Source of the DNA: Dictyostelium discoideum
Taxonomy: Eukaryota
Length of the DNA: 64,000 bases
Direction of reading: 5' to 3'
Assembly (NCBI GenBank): GCA_000004695.1
Contig: CM000150.2
Span: 1,600,001 to 1,664,000, forward strand
The notes under the pieces are model-generated. The model ran no database searches. It had not been told where the DNA came from and worked only from the letters and a program-made list of their open reading frames with translations. The position numbers were made by a program, and so were the translations under genes. Position 1 is the stretch's first letter. Every line of letters starts with the position of its first letter. Shown piece by piece: positions 719 through 46,794 of the stretch.

Positions 719-2124
719 GGATAATATTAGTAAAAAATTTATAATTAAATAAAAAAAAAATAAAATAAAAATAAAGAAAATTCATACCTTTGATATTTTT
801 CTTCTTTTGTATCTATATCATCATAAAAATTGAAAGGATCAGTGTGAATTTCAACACCTAAAACTTGATGAAACTTTGTATAATTTAAGGAATCTAAAAC
901 ATGAGTATTCCAAAAATTTTCTAAAAATGGTGGTGGATACAATGATGATGTTCTAAATATCCAACGAATTTTACCACTATATTGATCGAAATATTTAGTT
1001 GGAGTATCTTCTAAAATCTTTAAAATAAAAAATCTAACATATTCTTTTGCAGGTGAAAGTTGTAATAAATTTAATTTTAATCTATTTACTACTGGGTAAA
1101 AATTAAAATTATTCATTATATTTGATTCAAAATCATTAATATTTGATTTAATAATTGTTCTAAATTTTTCAATTTCACTACTATCATCATCACCATCTTG
1201 ATCATCATAATCATCATTATAATAATGTGATGAAATCTTTCTTTTCTTATTTCCCTTTTCAACTTGTACTTGATCCTCTTCTTCTTCTTCCTTTTCTTCT
1301 TCTTCTTCTTCTTCTTCATTATTTTTATAGTCACCACCATCTTTCTCTTGTTCCTCTTCTTTTTCTTTCTTTTCATCTTCTTGATCTTTTGAGGTTTTAA
1401 TAGTTAACCGTTTATTATATAATTTTGAATTTTCAATTGAAGATTGTAGTTGTGGTTGTGGTGGTTGTGGTGGTTGTGGTGGTTGTGGTGGTTGTGGTGG
1501 TTGTGGTTGTGGTTGTGGTGGTGGTGGTGGTGATGGTATTTCTTTTAATGCAGTATAAAAGGAACTAAAATAAACAAAACCATTTGAGAATTGATTTGGA
1601 TTGTTTTTTATAATTGCACCGATTTGAGCGAAAATATCAGTGAGTGATTTAATATATAATAGACCACTATGTGATGATATATACTCTTGAATATCATTAT
1701 AGTTGAAATAATATTTAAGCATTTCTTTATTTACTTGTTTTTTCTCTTGTAATGTATACTTAAATTTCTCTTGTAAATAATCTTGAATCTTAATTAAATT
1801 TAAAAGTGAAAATTTTATAATTTCTTGATATGATGATTTTTTATTTGGTATTTCAATATCATCATTATTATTATTATCATTATTTGTTGTTTTTTCTTCT
1901 TGACAAAGATAACATATACAAGGTATTGTTTTTAAATTTGATTTTGATTGTTTAATTAAATTGATATGGTTACTTTTTATATTGTCTTTAGCTTTTATTT
2001 TAAGCTCTCTAGAGACTTTGCGTATTTCATCAAATGATAATCCATCAAATATCCTTGCATTATAGGTGAACAATATCTTTTCGCTTGATTTAACCTTAAA
2101 TTTATGAAATGAAACTTCACTCAT
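589..2124 (-). CDS. Hypothetical protein with a (PQ/PPQ)n repeat and a long acidic Glu/Asp tract. Proposed exons are 2124..788 and 685..589.
   Basis: The 459-aa ORF starts at a real ATG (minus 2124). The track ORF reads on into AT-rich sequence. Instead a GTATGA donor follows ...EEKYQR at minus 787-786, then a 102-bp AT-rich intron with poly(A) and a TTAG acceptor. A GC-richer in-frame terminal exon at 685..589 encodes R-TLQLYQKYFEKMDSYSDIWIPSLVLEPKKEK and ends in TAA. The (GGTTGT)n repeat at 1449..1531 encodes the PQ repeats. Confidence 0.5.
1449..1531. repeat. (GGTTGT)n / (GGT)n hexanucleotide coding repeat that encodes PPQPPQ... on the minus strand
   Basis: Directly visible tandem ggttgtggtggttgtggtgg units. 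Confidence 0.9.
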
Positions 2125-2466
2125 TATGAAAGTTATGTCTCTATATCATTTCACTTCGTGTATTAAAAAAACTATTTAATATATGATTGTTTTTTTATTT
2201 TTATTTTTATCTATTTATTTTTTATTTTTTAAATATATAATAAGAAATGATGATGTAGATTATAATGAATAATAAAAAATTGAGAAGAAAAAAAAAAAAT
2301 TAAAAAATAAATTAAAAAAAAAAAAATCAAAAGATTCTCTGAAAAGGAAGGAATTCAATGAAGGTTGTTTTTTTTTTTTATTATTATTTTTATTTTAGTT
2401 TTTTTTTTAATTTTTTTTTTTTTATTTATTTATATTGTTTAATAAAAAAAACAATATAAATATAAA

Positions 2467-3407
2467 ATGTTTAATAATACAAATAAAATTATAGAAATTG
2501 AAAGAAATAATAATAAAAATATTGAAAAGGAATTATTCTATAAATATTTAAATGAAAACGAACCTATAATATTCACAAAATTTTCAACAGATTGGGAAGC
2601 ATTATCAAAATGGAATGATCCCAACTATCTCATCAATATTATTGGTAATGATCATATAGTGGATGTTAACAAATGTTCATTTGGTGGTTATTATAAAGAT
2701 ATTATCAAAATTAAATTCTCTGAATTCATATCAAAATCAATAAATAATCAATTTGATAATTTTGATTTAAATGGTATTTATTTTATTTTATTTTATTTTA
2801 TTATAAAAATAAAATTATAATAAAAATAATAAATTTATTTATTATTTAAATAGGAAATAAAATTAAAAAAGTAAATAAACCTTATTTAAGGAATTTTGAA
2901 ATGTTTGAAGATTTCCCAATTTTCGAGCAAGATATTAATTGTGATATTATATTTGACAAAGATAAACATAATTTAATTGTAAAGAGAGCATTTATTGGGA
3001 GTGTTGGATCAGCAACAAGTTTTCATATTGATACTGGTGATAATTTAGTTACTGTAATTAAAGGTTGTAAATTCATTGTAATGATATCACCAAATGATTC
3101 GAAATTTTTAGATTTTCAAAAAAGTAGAGAAATAGAAATATCTTTTAATCAAAATGATAATGATGGTATCCCATTAGAATATCATCCAGCTTTTTCAAAT
3201 TGTAAATATATTTATAAAACTTTATTAAGAAAAGGTGAATCATTATTCATACCAAATAATTGGACACATTATGTTCATAATATATCTGATCATGATGATA
3301 ACTTTAATGAAGATAATAATAATAATAATAATTGTAATAATAATAATAATTTAACAATTAGTGTTAGTTGTTGGGGAAAATCAATATATGATTTAGTTGT
3401 TGGATAA
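2467..3407 (+). CDS. JmjC (cupin-like) domain-containing protein. Proposed exons are 2467..2782 and 2854..3407.
   Basis: The two track ORFs (2467..2820 and 2901..3407) are in different frames. A GTATTT donor at 2783 and an AAATAG acceptor at 2852-2853 (phase 1) join them without stops. Motifs [17 protein letters not shown] and [24 protein letters not shown]...NNWTHYVHN are typical of the JmjC double-stranded beta-helix fold (H-x-D ... H). Confidence 0.55.
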
Positions 3408-3472
3408 AAAATAAAAAATAAAAAATTTTTAAAAAAAAGAAAAAGGGTAATATATTTATTTTTTATTTTATT

Positions 3473-4732
3473 TTATTTTTTTATTGGTATAATTGTTCTT
3501 CCAGATCTTGTTTGTAAAAGAGGAGTAGCAGTAGTGGCAGTAGTGGAATTGGTATTGGGTGTAAAAGTTGGTTGATTTCTATTAACTCTTTTTTTGTGAT
3601 TTAAATTAATTACCCAATCTAAATGTTTTAAATCATTTTCATATTTTAATTGATCTTTTTGTTGATTTGTAAGATCTTCATTTGTGATTAATCCAATCTC
3701 CATATAATATTGAAGTGTTTCAAATCTTCTATTTTCAACCATTTTTTCAATGAGGCAACTAGAGAAACCCAAAGATGGTATAAAAGTTCTTAATAATTCA
3801 AATTTACCAATACCATGTCTAATTACTCTAAAAACATCATTTTTAGTTTGAGTTGCAATGTTATCTTTTATCAAGTACTGTTTAATGCTTGGTAAAACGA
3901 TACCATTGGAAAATGTTAAAAAGTATTCCAAAGTTTGATTATCACATTCTGGTGAGAACAAAGATTTAATAATTTTATAACCTGTTAAAAATTCAATTGT
4001 TGAAGGTAATGTTGAATATTCAATATCTTTTACTAATAAAAGATCAACAATATCCAATCTTGATTTTGCAATTGCACATGACAATATCCAATCTTTACAT
4101 TTTTTAACATCTTTACCATACCACATTTTTAAGAGTGGTTGTTGTTCAGATTCATCTTTTGATTCATCAAAATTCTTTATAGTTGTTAAATTTATTAATT
4201 CAATAACATCTTCTAAAGTTATAAATTGAAATAATCTTGAAGTTGTAAGTGGAGGAAATTCAGAAACTGTTTTTGTTGCAACCAATTGTAAATGATTAAA
4301 AGCCAATTGAAATTCACCCTCTTCTATTAAAACTCTAAAATCTTTTGACCCATCAGGATGATAAAATGGATCAGAAGGATTATTATAATAATAACTTCTT
4401 TCCTCTGGGAAATAACTTTTAAATGTAGAATACTTTTCAAGTAAACTAAAATTTTGAAGTTCATAAATTGATTTAAAAATTTGAGATGCTGTATTTGAGT
4501 GTCTTTTTGATCTAATTCTACAAATAGATGAATTTTTTAAGCAAGGTAATCTTGAACTTGAAAATTCATTAAAATTTGAATTACTAAATGATCTAACAAA
4601 TAATTTTGATAATTTTCTATCTAATAAATGAAACCAATAAAATAATACAAAATTTGATACAACATTTTTTAAACTTTCATTATTAATATTACCACTATTA
4701 TTATAAGGTTGATAATTTAAAAGACCATAATA

Positions 4733-7291: not shown

Positions 7292-7814
7292 TTTTTAATT
7301 TTTTTTTTTTTTTTAAAAAAAAAAACTTATTTTTTTGATTTTTTTTTTTTTTGATTTTAAATTAAACAAATATAAATAAAAATTAAACAAATAAAAAAAA
7401 TATTTCTATTTAGAATAAAAAAATTTGAAAATAAAAAAAAAAAAAAAAAAAAAATTATTATTATCAAAAAAAAAAAAAAAAAAAATCAAAAAAAAAATTA
7501 AATAAAAAATAAATAAAAATCAAAAAAAAAAAAAAATAATAATCTGGGTCCAAGATATTTTTATTTTTTCTTTGAACAATCAAATTTATTAGTAAAAAAT
7601 TATTTTTTTGAGAATTTTTTAAGATTCTAAAAATAGAAATTTTTTTATTTTATTTTTGATAAATCTATTTTAAAATTTTTTAAAGTGTATAATTAAATTT
7701 ATTTTTATTATTATTGTTATTATAATTATTATTATTATTATTATTTTGAATATTTGTTGTACCACCAATAATTAAATCATTAAATGGTATCCAATTTTGG
7801 TGGTTATCTAATTG

Positions 7815-10863: not shown

Positions 10864-10878
10864 AGGGAGATCGGTACA
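10864..10878. repeat. Target-site duplication (left copy, gggagatcggtacac) flanking the TRE3 insertion
   Basis: The identical 15-mer recurs at 15405..15419, immediately outside the element's poly(A) end and its 5' end. Confidence 0.7.
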
Positions 10879-10998
10879 CTTTTTTTTTTTTTTTTTTTTA
10901 CCTGTGATCAGACCTTCAAGGAATGTCCTTGTGTCTTTTCGGCGGTGTTTGTTAAACGGTTTTATTTTTATTATTCAATTGTATTAAATTTTTTAAAC

Positions 10999-11077
<79 letters not shown>

Positions 11078-11082
11078 ACTAC

Positions 11083-14000
11083 TTAAATTGGAAGAGGGTT
11101 CGGAGCTGCTGGGGTTTGCCAGGCTTTGTTGAATTTGTATTTGTGAAGATCTTGATTGGTGTTTTTTAGTATTGCTTCGTCGTGTTTGATTTTCTTTAGT
11201 GTGATGAATTTTTCAGTTTCGATGAGATTTAGTAATTCTGTTTCTATGACCTTTTGCTCGAATTTTGGCTCTGGTTTGCTTTCATCAGTGTTGAACAATT
11301 TGTGACAGATTATCTTCCATAATTGGTGTGCTATTATTCCTATGAGATTGGGGAAGATTCTCTCAGTTCTGTTGTATTTTGATATGTCTAAGGTATCCAT
11401 TGACCATCTGTGGATTTTGATGAATGATAATTTGTTAACTGTTGATATGATGGTTTTTTCAATATCTAGGATATCTTGGCATAGAGTGAAGAGGTGAGAA
11501 TAAGGGTCTCTGAATAGGTGGCCACAGATCTTGCATCTGGTGTCTCTTTCGTGGTTGATACCTGGAAGTGATCTTGAGAAGAATCTGAAGAGGGTGTTTC
11601 TACCTTTTTGGTGAGAAATGCTGTTGATGTTTATGAATACTTTGGGTATTTCTGTGTTGTATCTCACCGCCCATAACTTCTGCCATTCTGTTCTTCTTGG
11701 TGTTGGGTGTCTGTCTTTGATCATGAGTTCGTAAATTTCTTTCAGTTTTAGTGGTTCATCATTGTCGTTTCTTATACAGTCTGGAAGTTCATTTATCTTT
11801 GGATGATTTTGGTAAAATTTGACTCTGAATACACCCCAGTGTCTGCACATATCGTTGAGGGTTGAAGTGTGGGCTTTTTTTCTACTTAATTGCTCCATGT
11901 ACCATTCTTGTAAAGTATTGTTGTTGTTGTTGTAGTTGTTATGGAGTAGCCTGTTCATGTACCAGATTTTGAATGCTATATGTCTTAGTTCTATATCCCA
12001 TAATTTTATGCCTCCTTCTTTCCAATCTGCATATGCTCTGTCTATTTTCATCATAGTTTTGTATTTTCTCTCTTCTGTATATGTATTCTTAACTGAGGAG
12101 AATAAGAACCATCTGGTCATGTTATTGATTTCCTCAATTTGTTCTTCATTTAGATTATCCATGTATTGATGGTATGTTAATTTGGATAGAACGTATGTTT
12201 TGAGAATTGTCATCTTTGCCTTCATCGTTATTGCTTGTGATTTCCATTTGATTAGATTGTTTTTCATTTCTTGGATTAAAGTGTTGTATTTTGAATTTAA
12301 ACCTGTTTTGGTGAAATTGAGGCCAAGATATCTTTCTGGGACTGTACTCTCTTGGAATGGTAGATCGTGTGGTTTATCTCCTATTGCTATCATTACTGTT
12401 TTCTCTTTGTTTAACGATGATGATGTTGCTGAGCAGTACTTTTGGATTTTAGTATTAATTTTCATTAGTTCTTCTGTGGAGTTTGTAAAGGTTGCTATGT
12501 CGTCAGCAAATGCAGTGAGTTTTAATGATTTGGAATTTGGTAGAGTGAAGCCTTTGATTGTATTATCATTGATGATATCTATTAGAAGTGGTTCTAAAAC
12601 TAGAGCAAAGATTGTTGGTGATATTGGGTCTCCTTGTTTTGTTCCTCTTCTGATTGTTATTCCATTGACTAAAAAGTCGTTGATCTTTATTTTGTTTTTA
12701 GTATCTTTGAGTAGGTTTAGTAGGATCGCTGTGAATTTTGGGGGGATACCAATATGCTCTAATGTTCTTGTGATACTCTTGTGGCTGATTGAATCGAATG
12801 CTTTGTTAAAATCGTAAAAGGTAATGAGTGTATTGTTCTTTCTTTTGTTACTTATTTCTATTACTTCCTTCATGATCTGAATATTGTCTTGGATGAACCT
12901 GTTTGGAACAAAGCCGTTTTGAAATTTGTTGATAATTTTACTGGTGATATCTAATAATCTACTGTTGAGAATTTTGCTTAAAATTTTGTAATCTGTATTG
13001 AGAAGGGTGATTGGTCTTCTATTTGAAATGTTTAGTTCATCTCCTTTTTTGAATATTGTTGTTATTACTCCTTCTTTGAATTTTGTGGGGATTTCTTTCT
13101 TATTTGTGAGGAGGTCGTTGAAAGCTATAGTCAATATTCTTGCTATTGAGTTGATGTGGTACTTGTAGAATAGTGCATTGATACCGTCTAAACCTGGAGA
13201 TTTGTGGATACTTGAAGTTTTGATTGCTTTGGTCACTTCATGTATTCTTATTGGTCTGTCTATCTCTAGTTTCTTGATTAAATCAACGTCTACTTCCCAT
13301 TTTTCTAATAACTTCTTGTGGGTTTCTTCGTTATCTTCTTTCTCTTCATATTGATCTTGATAGAATTCAACAAATCTTTTTGCTATGTTCTCTTTATCTG
13401 ATATGGGCTTATTATCTTTATCTTTTATTTGGAATATTGATTTATCTTTGGCTCTGGATTTAAGGATACTTGTGAGGTATTTGCTTGGTGTTTCTTGATG
13501 CAGGTGGAGTTTTAATTTGATATCCCATGCTTTTACCTTTCTTTCTTCTTCTAATATTCTACTTATTTCTTCATTGAGTTCTTTTCTCATCTTTGGAATG
13601 ATATCACTATTTTCAAGTAATTTGTGGATTACGTATTTTCTTTTGTTCTTTTCTTTCTTTATTTTGTTTTGTTCTTTTTTTAAATAATCTCTGATGACAT
13701 TATTTTTAAATTTCGTCCATTCCTCCACTGATTTGATCTTATCTTTGTTCTTACTGATTAATTCTGATAACCCATCATGTATATGTTTGTTGTTGAGAAT
13801 TTCTTTACATAATGTCCAAGGGAGTCTTTCTAGTTTGGTTGTTGTTGTTGTTGTTGTTTCTCTGTTGGTTTGTATTGAGATTGTGATGGGAAAGTGATCT
13901 GATTTGTTAAATACTGTGTTGTGGACTACCAATTTTGAATTTTGGTTTAGTAGTGTTGGATGACAGTAGATTCTATCTAGTCTCTTCATTGATCTTGGAA

Positions 14001-14526
14001 ATGTTGGAGTGTTTTCTTCAATACCAGTATCTAGTAGCATGTCTTGGTCTATTATTTTACGTAATTCAGTACCGAAGAAGCTGTTGCAATCGTGGTTGTT
14101 ATTGAAGTCGCCTGCTATTATTTGATGGTTGATTGAATTATATTTTTTAAACAGTGATTTTGAGTTGATTATGAAGGTGTTTCTTTCAGATATAGTCGCT
14201 GGAGCATAGATCAATAATATGTTGATAGAATTAAAGGAATTGTATTTAATTGATAGTATTCTACCATCATCGTCTTTGAAGTTTATTGATATGTGGCCTT
14301 TTCTTGTATCTCTATTTTCTATTGCTATGCCAGTTCCTTTACCTGAACCATGATCTATTCTTTCAAAGTTGAACATTGTTTTGTGGTGGTTGAATCCATT
14401 GAAATTAGTTTCAGTTAGGAGTGCTAATTGAGTGCCAATTCTTTTTATCGTTTCTTCTGTTTTATTCTTAGCGTTGGTTGATTGATTACCTCTGCAGTTC
14501 CATAGTAATAATTTTAATTGTTCCAT
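11083..14526 (-). CDS. TRE3 ORF2 polyprotein (endonuclease + reverse transcriptase)
   Basis: 1147-aa ORF containing the APE endonuclease region, the RT domain with FADD and the C-terminal Cys/His motif. Confidence 0.8.
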   Translation of the reverse strand: MEQLKLLLWNCRGNQSTNAKNKTEETIKRIGTQLALLTETNFNGFNHHKTMFNFERIDHGSGKGTGIAIENRDTRKGHISINFKDDDGRILSIKYNSFNSINILLIYAPATISERNTFIINSKSLFKKYNSINHQIIAGDFNNNHDCNSFFGTELRKIIDQDMLLDTGIEENTPTFPRSMKRLDRIYCHPTLLNQNSKLVVHNTVFNKSDHFPITISIQTNRETTTTTTTKLERLPWTLCKEILNNKHIHDGLSELISKNKDKIKSVEEWTKFKNNVIRDYLKKEQNKIKKEKNKRKYVIHKLLENSDIIPKMRKELNEEISRILEEERKVKAWDIKLKLHLHQETPSKYLTSILKSRAKDKSIFQIKDKDNKPISDKENIAKRFVEFYQDQYEEKEDNEETHKKLLEKWEVDVDLIKKLEIDRPIRIHEVTKAIKTSSIHKSPGLDGINALFYKYHINSIARILTIAFNDLLTNKKEIPTKFKEGVITTIFKKGDELNISNRRPITLLNTDYKILSKILNSRLLDITSKIINKFQNGFVPNRFIQDNIQIMKEVIEISNKRKNNTLITFYDFNKAFDSISHKSITRTLEHIGIPPKFTAILLNLLKDTKNKIKINDFLVNGITIRRGTKQGDPISPTIFALVLEPLLIDIINDNTIKGFTLPNSKSLKLTAFADDIATFTNSTEELMKINTKIQKYCSATSSSLNKEKTVMIAIGDKPHDLPFQESTVPERYLGLNFTKTGLNSKYNTLIQEMKNNLIKWKSQAITMKAKMTILKTYVLSKLTYHQYMDNLNEEQIEEINNMTRWFLFSSVKNTYTEERKYKTMMKIDRAYADWKEGGIKLWDIELRHIAFKIWYMNRLLHNNYNNNNNTLQEWYMEQLSRKKAHTSTLNDMCRHWGVFRVKFYQNHPKINELPDCIRNDNDEPLKLKEIYELMIKDRHPTPRRTEWQKLWAVRYNTEIPKVFININSISHQKGRNTLFRFFSRSLPGINHERDTRCKICGHLFRDPYSHLFTLCQDILDIEKTIISTVNKLSFIKIHRWSMDTLDISKYNRTERIFPNLIGIIAHQLWKIICHKLFNTDESKPEPKFEQKVIETELLNLIETEKFITLKKIKHDEAILKNTNQDLHKYKFNKAWQTPAAPNPLPI

Positions 14527-15398
14527 TATTTTCTAATACTACTGGCAATTGGAAACTTGGTACCATTGCTTGTAGTAATTTTATTGATAGGTTTTGTAGT
14601 AGTAGTAGTAGTAGTAGTAGTTTTGTTTAGGTTGTAGATTGTTGTATTGCTTGTTGGTAATTGATGTGTGGTTGTTGTTGGTGTGGTTGTTGTTTGTGTG
14701 GTTGTTATTGGTGTGGTTGTTATTGGTGTGGTTGTTGATGTATTAGTTGTTGGTGGAGTTGATGGTATTGATTTAGTTGTATTTGTAGTTGTTGGTTGTT
14801 GGTTTTTATTACTTGTGTTTTTTTTTTTTCTAACATCTCTTATTTCTTTATTGTTATATTCAGAGATGAAGGCTCTTATTGGATGCTTACTACCTTTTAT
14901 AGCATCAATGTTTGTTTTAATGATTGAGATATCATCTTCTTTATTAAATAATAGTATGCATGAATATCTAATCACATCTGGTAGCATTACTATGTTGCAT
15001 TCATCTATTAGTAATGGCTCCAATCCCCAGTTTTCTTTTACCATTTGATTGTTTATTTTTTTTATTATGTTTTTTGTAAATGTGTAAAAGTGGACATAGT
15101 GATATCCTGGGGTGTAAAGTATGAATTTTTGCAGTGGGAAATCTTCATACTTGAAAGTGCTGTAACACTCGTGTAATAATGTGAATTTTTCTTTTAGTAT
15201 TCTACCGAATACTGTTATACCCTTTTGTCTTCTGACAATGTTAAGAGTACCATTAACTATGAAATTATCTATTAATTTTGTTGAATTACTATTTAATTCC
15301 AAGGTATTTGGGTAGAATAACCTTATTTGAATAGTTTTTTTATTTAACTCTTCTTCGCCTAAGTTGAGTTCACCTTTAAGTTTATCGAAAAAATTCAT
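14524..15398 (-). CDS. TRE3 ORF1 (Thr-rich nucleic-acid-binding protein)
   Basis: The true ATG is at minus 15398, since the track's first M is a GTG. The ORF ends in TAA, which overlaps the ORF2 ATG as TAATG. It has a Thr/Pro-rich C-terminus. Confidence 0.7.
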
Positions 15399-15404
15399 TT
15401 TTTG

Positions 15405-15419
15405 GGGAGATCGGTACAC
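15405..15419. repeat. Target-site duplication (right copy, gggagatcggtacac) of the TRE3 insertion
   Basis: Exact 15-bp match to 10864..10878. Confidence 0.7.
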
Positions 15420-15508: not shown

Positions 15509-15579
15509 GGGGAGATCCGAGAATCGAACTCAGGACGCTACCACCCAAAGGTAGCATTATACCACTTAACTAATCTCCC
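15509..15579 (-). tRNA. tRNA-Pro (anticodon UGG), 71 nt, no encoded CCA
   Basis: Manual folding gives acceptor GGGAGAT/ATCTCCC, D-arm GTTA..TAAT, anticodon stem CTACC/GGTAG with loop TTTGGGT (U33, anticodon TGG, G37), and T-arm CTGAG-TTCGATT-CTCGG. The discriminator is C. Confidence 0.8.
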
Positions 15580-17831: not shown

Positions 17832-18417
17832 TCTTTAATACATATTTATTTGTTATTTTCGATAAATATAAAAAAGATAATCTTAAAATAAAAAAATAAA
17901 ATAAAAAATTAAAATAAAGGTAAAAAAATAAAAAATTAAAATAAAAGTTAAAAAAAATCCTCTTTATTTCGAAAAAAACATCATTTTTTTATTATAATAA
18001 AAATAAAAAAAAAATATCAAGATTTTTTTTTTATGTCCTTTCATATGGGAAAAAATTGGTCAAGAATTTTTTTTTTTTTTTTTTTGATATTTTTTTTTTT
18101 TTTTTTTTTTGTGGAAGATTTGTCTGGTATGGATTTTTTCTTTTTTTTTTTTTTTTTTTAAATATTGGTCAGAGTTAAACAATAGTTTTAATTATTAATT
18201 ATAATTTTAAAATGTAGAATCGAGTATGAGAGCTTTCGTCTATAAATGGTTTCATGAACCAATATACAATTGATTACAGAACTTATGAATTATTAATTCC
18301 ATTATGTCTCTATATTCAAAGGTTTTTGAGGTCATTATTTAAAAATTTTTTACCTCATTCAAAATATTCTTTGTGGTCTATGTTAATCTTATTGATTATT
18401 ATTCAATATCTTAAATC

Positions 18418-18453: not shown

Positions 18454-18524
18454 GGGGAGATCCGAGAATCGAACTCAGGACGCTACCACCCAAAGGTAGC
18501 ATTATACCACTTAACTAATCTCCC
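18454..18524 (-). tRNA. tRNA-Pro (UGG), second copy, identical to the one at 15509..15579
   Basis: Identical 71-nt sequence, including a conserved 3' flank of about 45 bp. Confidence 0.8.
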
Positions 18525-32148: not shown

Positions 32149-32773
32149 AAAAAAAAAGTACTTTATATGGTTACTAGAGTACCTAGATTCGTGACATGTT
32201 CTTCTTATGATGTTTGTTCTTGTAAATTTGTTAATGATTGCAATGCCTTCATAAACGATAATTTATCATAGTAAATAAAATAAATTAAAACATATAATTG
32301 TACAAAGCAAATTCCTATTTTTTCGTTTATTTAAAAATAAAACCAAAATATAAATTTTATTTTGGTTAATTTTTTTTTTTTTTTTTTTTTTCTAATCAAA
32401 TAAATAAAAGATTAATTATAAATAATTTTTTATATGTGTTCAAATTTTATTTTTGTATTGGCAAAACTTATTAAAATAACTCGGAACATTGTCCCACTTA
32501 GTTCAAAGGTTTTCTGTAATCAATAATGGCAATGGCACAGTGAGTGAAAGTTTCAAGCTTTCTTCAAACAAAATTACCCTTTCAATTTTTTGTATTTATA
32601 GTAAATTCCCAGCCATTTTATTGTTTAATTAATGTTTTTTTAAAAATGTATACAATATTTAGTTATGATTCCAATTATTATATTAAGTTTCTTATATGCG
32701 ACCAAAAATGTTTTTTCACCAAAAAAAATTTAAAAATGCATTGGAGCAAAATTAACAAAATTTCATAATAAGT

Positions 32774-32846
32774 GCCTGGATGGCTCAGTAGGCAGAGCGA
32801 GCGGCTGTTAACCGCTAGGTCCATGGTTCGATCCCATGTCTAGGCG
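32774..32846 (+). tRNA. tRNA-Asn (anticodon GUU), 73 nt
   Basis: Manual folding gives acceptor GCCTGGA/TCTAGGC, D-arm GCTC-AGTAGGCA-GAGC, anticodon stem AGCGG/CCGCT with loop CTGTTAA (anticodon GTT), variable loop AGGTC, and T-arm CATGG-TTCGATC-CCATG. The discriminator is G. Confidence 0.8.
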
Positions 32847-32876
32847 ATAATTTTCCACCACAATTACACGGTTTAA

Positions 32877-32887
32877 GGGTTCGATTC
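32877..32887 (+). promoter_or_regulatory. External B box (GGGTTCGATTC) about 31 bp downstream of tRNA-Asn
   Basis: It matches the internal B-box consensus GGTTCGANTCC, and its position fits the Dictyostelium exB arrangement. Confidence 0.6.
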
Positions 32888-32992
32888 TGACCAAAATGAA
32901 ACGGAGGTATTGAAAAAAAAATAAAATTAAAAAAAAAATAAACCTTCATCTATAACTAAGGTATCCCCCAATAATATATATTAAAGTAATAT

Positions 32993-33120
32993 GATATATA
33001 ATATAGTTTAAAAAATTTAATACAATTGAATAATAAAAATAAAACCGTTTAACAAACACCGCCGAAAAGACACAAGTACATTCCTTGAAGGTCTGATCAC
33101 AGGTAAAAAAAAAAAAAAAA
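32993..33120 (+). mobile_element. 5'-truncated solo 3' end (C-module + poly(A)) of a TRE3-type retrotransposon, flanked by a 17-bp target-site duplication (atatattaaagtaatat at 32976..32992 and 33120..33136)
   Basis: About 110 nt (...atataatatagtttaaaaaatttaatacaattgaataataaaaataaaaccgtttaacaaacaccgccgaaaagacacaagTacattccttgaaggtctgatcacaggt-A16) match the 3' end of the full-length element at 10879..11000 with a single mismatch. It lies about 137 bp downstream of tRNA-Asn and about 95 bp past its exB. Confidence 0.75.
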
Positions 33121-33310
33121 TATATTAAAGTAATATAAAAAAAATCTATATTATCCAACTTTCTTTATAGTTTCTTAACATTTTAAACATGCACCAAAAT
33201 ATCTTTTTTTTTATTTTAAACTTTTTTTTTTTTTTAGATTTTTAATTTTTAATTTTTTTTATTTTTTATTTTTTTATTTTAAACTTTTTTTTTTACCCAA
33301 CACCCTTGTA

Positions 33311-34303
33311 ATGGATAATAATAATAACAATATTATTAATAATAATAATAATAATAACGAAAAAAATGAAATATTATTTTGGAAAGTTTATAGAAATGTT
33401 TATTTAAATAAACAAATTTTTACTCAATTGGAGAATGACTCAATTGAATATCAAAACCCAAAAAAGTATTATATTGATAATAGAATAAAGTTTAAAAATG
33501 TAAATTCATTAGAAAGTATGGTATATAAAAGGCAATTTAATCTTTTAGAATATAAGTTAAGAAATAATGAATATATCAACCTTAAACATGGAATTAGAGC
33601 ATTTGTTGATTTTATTTATGACGATTTTAATGAAAGAATAGAATTATTTAAATTATTTTTAGAGAAATATTTAGTAGCTGTCCAAGATTATGGAAAAATT
33701 GTAAGTGATGCAATTGATCTTAAAAGATACCAAGTTTTAAAAATATTATTAAATGAACCATACTGTTTTAAAATTGATAAAAGTTGTTATCGAAAAATTT
33801 TAGTTGACTATAAAGGTAGTCATCATCATCATAAAAATGAGGATTTAATTATACAATTAGTTAATAAACACACTACAGATCAAGTTAAATTAATGGCAAT
33901 CGATCAATATGATTCAATGTATCGTAAAACTGGCAGTAAAATTCTAATTAAAATTAAAATGGAAATTTTAATTTTAATTAGAATTTTAAATGTCGCTTTA
34001 AATCTTCCACCCTCGGATAAATATAATACTCGTTATTATTATTCTTATAGTATCTTAAGTACTTTTAAAACCTTGGATACAAGAATTCACAATAATTCAA
34101 ATCATACCAATTTTAATCATCATTTACAATTAATAAATTTAAAAGATAAATTATTGAATTTAAATTTCTATAAAAATGATTATAATGACACTTTTAGTTA
34201 TTATTGGTTAAATCAACTTTCAAACTTTAAAGGTTATAATAAATTATTAATACCTTTAATTTTATTACATTTTAAAATTTATTTTATTTATAAAAATATT
34301 AAA

Positions 34304-34352
<49 letters not shown>

Positions 34353-35778
34353 TTTTACCAGAAAACATTGAAAATGAAATTAAAGAAATTTTAGGTGAAG
34401 ATTATTTAATAGATTATGAATTTAAAGAAAAACAATTATTAAGGTTATTAATAATTGAAAGTCAATCAAAATCATTATATAGATTTTATTATGAAAGATA
34501 TAGTCAAACTATTGAACAAAACTTGATTACAAAATTTAAAGTACCAATTTATGAATCATCTAATGTTTTTGATGATTTACAAATATTGGCTAAACTTGGA
34601 TTTAATGAAAATCTCAATAGAATAATTCAATGTATAAATGATTTTATTAATGATCATAATGTTAGAATTTGTAAAAACTTTCATAAATATTTTGAAATAA
34701 TAAGATTTATTAGAAATTATATATTTAATAATTTTAATTGTAATGAAAATTATAGTAAATTAATTGAAGTAATGTCAATTAATGGTGTGGGATTAACAAT
34801 ACTTTATTTACCAAGTAAATGGAATTCTTATTTAAAATATTTTACTCTTGAACAATTTAAAAATGATAAAGTTTTAATTTCAGATAAACAAGTTATAAAA
34901 TGGTTAAAATCAATTGAAAAAAAAAAGAATAAAATGTTTTCATCAGTTTTATCAGAATATTATAAAAAAAGAAGAAATAATTTAATAGAGTTTAGTTGTA
35001 ATGAAATTGCTCAATATGCAATCAAAAAATTAGAGATTGGTAATTTTTCAAATAAATTCCCACCAATTAAATTTGATATTATCAAATGGTCAACCATTGA
35101 AAATCAAAATCCAATTTCAAATATTATTAATGAACTTTCTTTTCAAAATTACAACATTTTAATTGAATCTGATCAAGATAATAATAATATTGATATTGAT
35201 ATTGTTAAAAATAAAAAGAAAACAAATTTTATTATTCAATTAAATTATAACCTTTATAAATTAATTAATAATGATAATTATTCAGAAATTCGTAAATTTT
35301 TAATTCAAAATTTAATTAAAAGAATTTTAAAAATTAATGGTGGTAATGCTTTAAATCAAATATTTAAAACTACAAGTTTTAAAGATACTTTACAAAATTA
35401 TCCATTCACATTTTTTGAAACATTTATAAACTCTTTTAATAACTTTGAAATTGAAAATGTTATAATGTTTTTAAATAGTGGAATTGATTTCATAAAATAT
35501 CAATATGATTTTCAACTAGTTTGGAATAAAAAAGTCGATCAAGTTATAGACATTTACAAAAAAAAATATTCATTTGGTTTTAATTACACAAATATAATAA
35601 ATAATATTAAAAGTGAAGTGGTTTTAAATTTTATTAACTATTGGTTAACTCAAGATAAAATTCCATTCAATTCTGAAATTAATAAATTAATAGTAAATCA
35701 TTTATTTAAAAAGTTAATTCAAACTCAAGGTATTACAATTTATCAAGTTTCAAAAATTAGAAATTTAATATTAAATTT

Positions 35779-35816
<38 letters not shown>

Positions 35817-36454
35817 TACCAAATAATAATGATAAAATAATATTTTTAGAAGAAACAAATTTTCATACTTTTTTTTATCTTTATAATAAGACACCAAAGA
35901 TTTCACATTATATAGAGAGTACAGAGTATTCAATTTTTAATTTAAATTCAAATTCAGATGCAAGTTTATTTGATTTTCAATTTATTTATAAGGAATCATT
36001 TGAAAGATTAATTGAAATTTTAATGGAAAAGGATAATGGTAATGAGCCTACCAATAAAAAGGTAAATAATCAACTATTATACTTTTTAGTGATAAGAAGA
36101 ATTGATTTGTTTTTTAATCACCTTCAAACTATTAGAAAATTGGGATTGAATTTTAGATTTAGTAAATATTCAGAATTGATAAAAATTATTCAACATCAAC
36201 AATTTAGTGGAAATTCAAATGATTCTTTAAAAACTTTTATTAATGAATATAGATTAACAAATTCTAATATCACTGAACAATCAATTGCATCACAACTCTT
36301 AATTGAATCAGTAAAATTAAATAGTAAAGAAGAAATTATTAATTTCATTATTGAAAACTATCAACCAGAAAAAATAACTCTTCCATCTTCAACCATTGAT
36401 AATCCTTTAGTTCAAAAAATTTTAAAAAATTATCCAAATTTGTTGAAGTTTTAA
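33311..36454 (+). CDS. Large Asn/Ile-rich hypothetical protein (1047 aa), no recognisable domain
   Basis: Uninterrupted ORF with a real ATG. It contains poly-Asn, poly-Ser and His runs typical of Dictyostelium low-complexity proteins. Confidence 0.55.
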
Positions 36455-46392: not shown

Positions 46393-46794
46393 GGAAATAA
46401 TAATACTACTTTAATAAATACTGAAAATAATAATAATATAACTAAATTTGATGACGACTCAGAAAAAGAATCTGAAGAAGAACCAAAGCCAATTATCATA
46501 AAAGAAGAACCAAAAATAGTTTCAGTTAAAGTTGAATCCAAAAAGGTCGTCGTTAAAGAAGAAGAACAAAAATCATCAAAGAAAGATAAAGATATTAAAA
46601 AAGAAAAAGAATCTAAAAAGAGAAAGAAAGATTCCAGTGATGAAAGTGACGAAAGTGAAGAAGATAAAAAGAAAAAATCAACTAAAAAAGAAAAAGAATC
46701 ATCTTCAAAAAAGTCAAGTAAAAAAGTAAAAGTTGAATCATCATCAGAATCAAGTGAAGATGAAAAAGAAAAAAAGAAAAAGAAAAAGAAATAA
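45550..46794 (+). CDS. Rpb7-like RNA polymerase subunit, probably the Pol I A43-like subunit, with a long Lys/Glu/Ser-rich charged tail. Proposed exons are 45550..45856, 45929..46115 and 46218..46794.
   Basis: A GTAAAG donor lies at 45857 with a TATAG acceptor at 45927-45928 (phase 1). A GTAAGT donor lies at 46116 with a TTATAG acceptor at 46216-46217 (phase 2). The joined frames are continuous with the track ORFs 45550.. and 46258... The N-terminal region (LVFKYKTELGGIIISYYDV ... LVFKPFKDQIL) resembles the Rpb7/RPA43 N-domain (VVFKPFKGEVV). The family assignment is tentative. Confidence 0.45.

Follow-up and report, generated by a model that had tools for sequence, protein, structure and literature searches.

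A solo 5'-truncated TRE3 3' module downstream of a tRNA-Asn gene in Dictyostelium discoideum, ending at the boundary of an internal oligo(A) tract

Downstream of a tRNA-Asn gene in a 64-kb window of Dictyostelium discoideum DNA (the window being the whole stretch analyzed here), a short fragment with a poly(A) tail repeats the 3' end of a much larger element present in the same window. The locus raises the question of how so small a piece of a retrotransposon came to stand there and why it begins where it does. The first-pass annotation recognized in it the classic signature of abortive, 5'-truncated target-primed reverse transcription, and the poly(A) tail, the 17-bp duplication, and the empty sites in relatives described below bear this out. 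It is highly probable that target-primed reverse transcription of the RNA of a TRE3-family non-LTR retrotransposon placed this fragment ∼105 bp 3' of the external B box (exB) of the tRNA-Asn gene, in the orientation of the tRNA. The outcome is a dead, non-coding fragment of an already known kind of element, one that is very common in the D. discoideum genome, where ∼61% of the tRNA genes carry a TRE (PMC5006619).

The insert and its target site

The features of the target locus and of the insert are as follows.

32773..32847 (ARAGORN) or 32774..32846 (Rfam RF00005, 64.3 bits), plus strand: tRNA-Asn(GTT), the targeted Pol III gene
From 32825, plus strand: internal B box GGTTCGATCC of tRNA-Asn, read in the sequence and by motif scan
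32877..32887, plus strand: exB GGGTTCGATTC, read in the sequence and by motif scan
32976..32992, plus strand: 5' copy of the 17-bp target-site duplication ATATATTAAAGTAATAT, an exact repeat, represented once, in diverged form, at the empty sites in L004 and L005
32993..32995, plus strand: GAT at the 5' junction, mismatching the large copy of the window
32996 and 32997..33104, plus strand: one A and the 108-nt TRE3 3' module, all the element sequence that was copied
33105..33119, plus strand: A15, the poly(A) tail of the solo insert, with one further A at 33120 common to the duplication; missing from the empty sites
33120..33136, plus strand: 3' copy of the 17-bp target-site duplication ATATATTAAAGTAATAT, an exact repeat

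The fragment had been described as identical, apart from one G/T difference, to the 3' end of the large element, and this is what a BLAST comparison returns: 32996..33120 aligns with 11008..10884 (minus strand) over 125 bp at 99.2% identity (E=3e-60), the lone mismatch being 33077 T versus 10927 G. The 17-bp direct repeats said to bound it are exact, cannot be extended on either side, and are the only two exact copies of ATATATTAAAGTAATAT in the 64 kb, so the suspicion that the repeat is a recurrent low-complexity AT sequence finds no support; at up to two mismatches, the window contains one further match, at 46403. The 17-mer is one of four non-homopolymer 17-mers repeated at 100–200 bp spacing in the window, and the chance of such a flanking 17-mer is ∼1e-5 when 40x40 placements are allowed for.

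Orthologous loci were reached via the conserved upstream membrane protein. Two of these loci, L004 and L005 (labeled D. discoideum, diverged), have flanks ∼92% identical to the window with the same tRNA-Asn and exB, and they read ...CCCCAATAATATTTATTTAA(A/T)GGAATAT (in the longer form, ...GGTATCCCCAATAATATTTATTTAA(A/T)GGAATAT) followed directly by AAAAAAAATGATCTATATTAT, with one diverged target copy, no module, and no A-run. The window minus 32993..33136 aligns colinearly with both across the junction. Since L004 and L005 have a single target copy and no insert, the direct repeat is a true target-site duplication and the insert is the product of a retrotransposition specific to the lineage of the window. 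The insert is missing at the L006 locus (D. cf. discoideum) too, and the tRNA-Asn is identical at all three orthologous loci, with the exB kept in L004 and L005. With one change in 108 nt and identical duplications, the insertion is therefore young.

In D. citrinum, the corresponding locus (L003) was found via a protein search with the low-complexity downstream protein, to which D. citrinum gave the sole match, and it is unsuitable as an empty site because ∼6 kb of other insertions lie between the tRNA-Asn and the gene. This stretch (L003 700..6950, up to the orthologue of the downstream gene) contains a tRNA-Lys(CTT) and two nested 5'-truncated TRE3 copies of two lineages, one of the nested copies having the 18-bp duplication GTTAGTACTAGATGATTT.

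The position of the insert agrees with what is known of TRE3 targeting. The first-pass annotation located it correctly 3' of the tRNA-Asn and past the exB, with figures (∼137 bp and 95 bp, respectively) that have to be corrected: the tRNA-Asn 3' end lies 128 bp from the direct repeat and 145 bp from the first inserted base, and the corresponding distances counted from the end of the exB are 88 and 105 bp. The published rule for TRE3 is an integration range of 40–150 bp in the same orientation, with targeting via an internal or external B box (PMC5911963), and the solo insert, which is on the plus strand like the tRNA-Asn, fits this rule of position and orientation, its distances being 145 bp (tRNA-Asn) and 105 bp (exB end). 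Among the seven insertions examined, the distance from the tRNA 3' end ranges from 66 to 145 bp (∼84 bp for the other-lineage copy in L003; 66–109 bp for the related copies), and the target-site duplications in the sample are 13–18 bp long. Rfam finds three tRNAs only over the 64-kb window and no match in the 3' module.

On its other side, 175 bp separate the end of the solo insert from the ATG of a downstream ORF of 1047 aa (33311..36454), and the spacer between the tRNA and the gene measures ∼463 bp with the insert versus ∼295 bp in L005. The insert therefore lies in what is likely the promoter region of this ORF.

The partner element and the TRE3 3' end

The large element of the window, which served as the comparison element, comprises the following features.

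10880..15402, minus strand: ORF-complete TRE3-type copy, 4523 bp
15579..15509, minus strand: tRNA-Pro(TGG) upstream of the large copy; the element starts 106 bp downstream of it in the same orientation
15417..15403 and 10879..10865, minus strand: 15-bp duplication GTGTACCGATCTCCC of the large copy
15398..14526, minus strand: ORF1, 290 aa, no Pfam match
14526..11083 (stop 11085..11083), minus strand: ORF2, 1147 aa, Exo_endo_phos and RVT_1
11082..11075, minus strand: GTAGTAGT after the ORF2 stop
11074..11008, minus strand: internal A67
11007..10900, minus strand: 3' module, 108 nt
10899..10880, minus strand: A20 tail

The partner is a TRE3-type element and not a member of another repeat family, because it has an ORF1 and an APE/RT ORF2, lies 106 bp downstream of a tRNA-Pro gene in the same orientation, and is flanked by a 15-bp duplication. 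The ORF2 matches PF03372 (1.2e-9) and PF00078 (2.6e-36), that is, the APE and RT domains; Pfam returns no zinc-finger domain for ORF2, and a CX2CX9HX4C motif (CKICGH...H....C) is visible in the translation near its C-terminus. The stop codon of ORF1 shares a single base, 14526, with the ATG of ORF2, which fits the −1 frame of ORF2 relative to ORF1 reported for TRE3-A (PMC5911963). In addition, ORF2 has 99% identity with a cluster of 55 proteins that carries "hypothetical protein" names only and consists mostly of D. discoideum with a few D. citrinum members; this cluster is the largest TRE3-like one found, which hints at TRE3-A. The copy had been called full-length, and it is complete in its ORFs, but the 5' leader seen in other copies is missing, only 7 A preceding the ORF1 ATG (15402..15390, minus strand); the copy is therefore without the leader and probably also without the promoter. 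The solo insert differs from it in the tRNA gene targeted, in the duplication, and in the length of the poly(A), and is thus, as the first-pass annotation held, a second independent TRE3 integration. The window has two tRNA-Pro(TGG) genes (15509..15579 and 18454..18524), both on the minus strand, 2.9 kb apart and with identical Rfam scores, and only the first of the two has a TRE3 copy ∼100 bp downstream.

The 3' end was compared among the window copy, L001 and L007 (D. discoideum, another strain), L002 (D. cf. discoideum, element 81% identical), L008 (D. dimigraforme), and L003 (D. citrinum, a second, 67%-identical TRE3 lineage), which together represent five assemblies and two TRE3 lineages. 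The layout ORF2–GTAGT–A(25–67)–module (92–153 nt)–A(13–20) is found in all six ORF2-containing copies compared, and in a seven-copy alignment the last ∼60 nt are the best-conserved part of the module and are kept between the TRE3 lineages. The module of the solo insert is 99% identical to that of L001 and 84% identical to that of L002. The earlier claim that the terminal ∼110 nt form a discrete conserved 3' module consequently stands, although the solo insert does not suffice as its sole basis and the internal A tract and the ∼60-nt conservation are needed. Deletions occur in single copies; for example, L001 lacks element positions 1949–3826 (at L001 7933/7934), and the L007 module (7420..7440) is without 16 nt, so that its apical hairpin is gone. 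A scan of JGI metagenomes and GTDB genomes with the module core gave nothing, as expected for a eukaryotic repeat.

Two features concern the predicted fold of the module end.

33058..33104, plus strand: terminal stem-loop, 47 nt, from RNA folding; interrupted, closed by ACC...GGT directly before the poly(A)
33077..33077, plus strand: T, where other copies have G

Folding of the terminal 47 nt gives a minimum free energy of −14.8 kcal/mol (z −3.6) for the consensus version and −10.0 kcal/mol (z −1.45) for the solo insert. The consensus fold of four lineages has 14 pairs, 13 of them invariant and one with compensatory changes, so covariation is weak but consistent with the hairpin, and the predicted stem-loop is likely the 3' recognition structure. 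At position 33077, G is present in all five other copies that retain the position (the window copy, L001, L002, L008, and the L003 lineage), the region being deleted in L007. As the T at 33077 is private to the solo insert and breaks a G-C pair of the apical stem (AAGGA/TCCTT) in a conserved stem-loop, it does not look like a marker of a TRE3 subfamily, a possibility that the first-pass annotation had raised, and in this small sample it is best read as a private mutation or a copying error in a dead, non-functional fragment.

The strand opposite to 11074..10998, which covers the internal A tract and the start of the module, reads CTATATTATA followed by T(25–67), as it does in L001, L002, L007, and L008. 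Dictyostelium has core promoters made up of a TATA box and oligo(dT). By its sequence, the arrangement of CTATATTATA and T(25–67) resembles such a core promoter directed antisense into ORF2, and a putative antisense promoter of this kind might explain the conservation of the A tract, by analogy with the antisense promoter of the TRE5-A C-module.

The 5' end of the insert and internal oligo(A) tracts

The 5' end of the solo insert lies within ∼0–3 nt of the boundary between the internal A tract and the module, and the insert keeps at most one A of the tract. For a stop placed at random over 4.5 kb, the probability of falling within ±3 nt of this boundary is ∼0.0015. Because the 5' end coincides with the internal A-tract boundary, the truncation is probably non-random, and in our opinion the stop at the A tract is no coincidence. 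In the course of events proposed here, the element endonuclease would nick the bottom strand where the 17-mer meets its left flank, with the poly(A) tail as the starting place of reverse transcription. The enzyme would then copy the 3' module and end on reaching the internal oligo(A) tract between the module and ORF2, either reverse transcription or the integrity of the template failing preferentially at internal oligo(A) tracts. The top strand would be cut 17 bp downstream, and the short cDNA would be joined with 0–3 extra bases (GAT). The stop might be caused by pausing or dissociation of the polymerase on oligo(rA), by a protein that blocks the A tract, or by breakage of the RNA template.

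The three bases GAT may be filler added without a template, or they may come from a source copy, as the start of a module that read ...GATATATAAT; the L002 module starts with CATATATAAT, as compared with this hypothetical source start. If GAT were templated by such an unseen source copy, the truncation point could shift by 2–3 nt. Microhomology-driven 5' joining was considered for the solo insert and rejected, since the target end (...TAATAT) and the junction (GAT) show none, and A-rich microhomology may have been involved in the 5' joining of L001 and L007.

The 5' ends of the other copies bear on the same point. The 5' end of L001 has at most four A before the ORF1 ATG, nearly the same point as in the window copy and with a possible TAAA/AAAA microhomology, and that of L007 lies in an A23 run 98 nt before the ATG, its leader (2903..3000) being inside the target-site duplication. 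Longer leaders, each inside the duplication of its copy, are found in L008, where ∼280 nt (1200..1478) lead into a long stretch of A that reaches to the ORF1 ATG, and in L002, where ∼970 nt (990..1960) are followed by A29 and then TATAATAAAAAA just before the ATG. Four of the seven junctions (the solo insert, the window copy, L001, and L007, which are of D. discoideum type and independent) are therefore in oligo(A) tracts, while runs of at least eight A make up 2.7% of the element; the joint chance of these A-tract junctions is ∼2e-4 by our own arithmetic from the run lengths, with ascertainment bias allowed for.

The strongest competing explanation retains the same mechanism and treats the stop at the A tract as pure coincidence, the result of random 5' truncation skewed to short products, and it deserves serious consideration without being the favored one. 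Truncated copies ending at non-A positions do exist, two 5'-truncated D. citrinum copies in L003 ending at ordinary ORF2 positions. Short inserts may also be common, as very short products occur: on the minus strand of L003 at ∼4060..4020, inside an older TRE3 fragment, AGGT followed by A25 is flanked by the 14-bp direct repeat CAGCATTTCTCACC and looks like an extreme abortive TRE3 insertion in which only the last 4 nt were copied. The junctions are moreover few, and their choice is partly biased: three of the four copies in support came to light via an intact ORF2, which restricts the possible positions of their 5' ends. Coincidence has to accommodate, however, both a landing within ±3 nt in a 4.5-kb element and three further independent junctions in oligo(A), with the low individual and joint probabilities given above. 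The A tracts are thus probably preferred, not obligatory, end points.

A broader proposal can be made from the same junctions, and it is put forward tentatively, as a conjecture that may well turn out to be wrong. Inside the element, a conserved oligo(A) tract directly ahead of ORF1 and another between ORF2 and the module would both be preferred end points of reverse transcription or preferred points of template breakage, and would give rise to discrete insertion classes, with the ∼108-nt module and its hairpin as the minimal unit that is recognized and mobilized. If this is true, the classes would be module-only solo inserts, leader-less ORF-complete copies, and full copies.

An insert that takes in the module from end to end, with an extra G at its start, might alternatively derive from a short RNA of its own, with a transcript start or a cleavage just 3' of the A tract, copied in full by TRE3 proteins in trans in the manner of a SINE; the junction G could then be a copied cap. 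The conserved terminal hairpin in the module and the analogy with the TRE5-A C-module, of which the 3'-terminal 87 nt suffice and the hairpin is essential (PMC3159450), are in keeping with such an origin. It is nevertheless improbable, given that there is one solo insert in the 64-kb window and none in the ∼88 kb of Dictyostelium loci compared, and that reading through the module sequence reveals no Pol III motif resembling a B box. Still less probable is the insertion of a longer TRE3 copy that subsequently lost all sequence 5' of the module: TRE3 copies do suffer internal deletions, as in L001 and in the L007 module, but here a breakpoint within 3 nt of the 5' duplication would be needed with both 17-bp copies left intact, in an insert that is otherwise almost unmutated. 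A similarity created by segmental duplication or gene conversion of the DNA, or a chance AT-rich match with an accidental flanking repeat, can be set aside as hardly credible, since, even in a genome with ∼78% A+T and with poly(A)-like matches throughout the window, the match lies in complex sequence, the poly(A) lengths differ (15–16 versus 20), the unique 17-mer flanks the insert exactly, and the empty sites in related genomes refute it.

Known systems and uses of the locus

The TRE3 elements of D. discoideum (TRE3-A to -D) have two ORFs, an APE-RT-zinc-finger ORF2, and a poly(A) tail. The large element has the same organization, and both window copies fit TRE3 with no essential difference. 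A closer parallel for the module itself is found in TRE5-A, an upstream-targeting Dictyostelium element, in which the C-module comprises the 3'-terminal 134–137 nt and a predicted stem-loop in the last ∼50 nt is conserved between related elements and essential for retrotransposition (PMC3159450). The TRE3 module is likewise short, 3'-terminal, situated just before the oligo(A), and provided with a predicted terminal stem-loop; unlike the C-module, it has a long oligo(A) tract between it and the coding sequence. To judge from its conservation and its predicted folding, the TRE3 module may be the functional parallel to the TRE5-A C-module.

Insertions of L1 and other LINEs that are 5'-truncated in the course of target-primed reverse transcription are 3'-coterminal fragments that end in a poly(A), are flanked by a target-site duplication, and show additional or microhomologous bases where their 5' end is joined. 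The solo insert is similar in being 3'-coterminal and in having a poly(A), a target-site duplication in the 13–18 bp range, and a few extra 5' bases. It is unlike them in two respects: its target is set by a Pol III gene and not by a TTTT/AA-type site, and its truncation point coincides with a homopolymer internal to the element.

For annotation, the solo insert is a clean, datable example, with intact duplications and with empty sites in sister lineages. It delimits the 3' module exactly and shows that the last 108 nt and a poly(A) suffice for an integration to begin and to be completed. Taken with the other copies, it suggests an influence of internal oligo(A) tracts on the end positions of TRE3 copies. 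If A-tract end points held true genome-wide, they would provide a simple rule for 5' truncation in an A-rich LINE-like element, and the module would be a candidate for the minimal cis-element in a tagged reporter of TRE3 retrotransposition, of the kind made for TRE5-A. The secondary points, namely the A-tract-delimited module, the terminal hairpin, the 5' ends in A tracts, and the leader-less copy, are of modest specialist interest.

Arrays of A-runs are also present near two of the loci. At 18060..18160 (minus strand) of the window, on the downstream side of the second tRNA-Pro, a ∼22-nt unit is interspersed with long runs of A in the arrangement A19-G-A6-TCCATACCAGACAAATCTTCCAC-A21-TATC-A19, flanked by TGACCAAT words, and a similar tandem of A(n) and CTTCATACCCAACTATATTTTC lies just past the TRE3 copy in L001 (8737..8860). 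These arrays may be remnants of very short retro-insertions or promoter-like low-complexity sequence.
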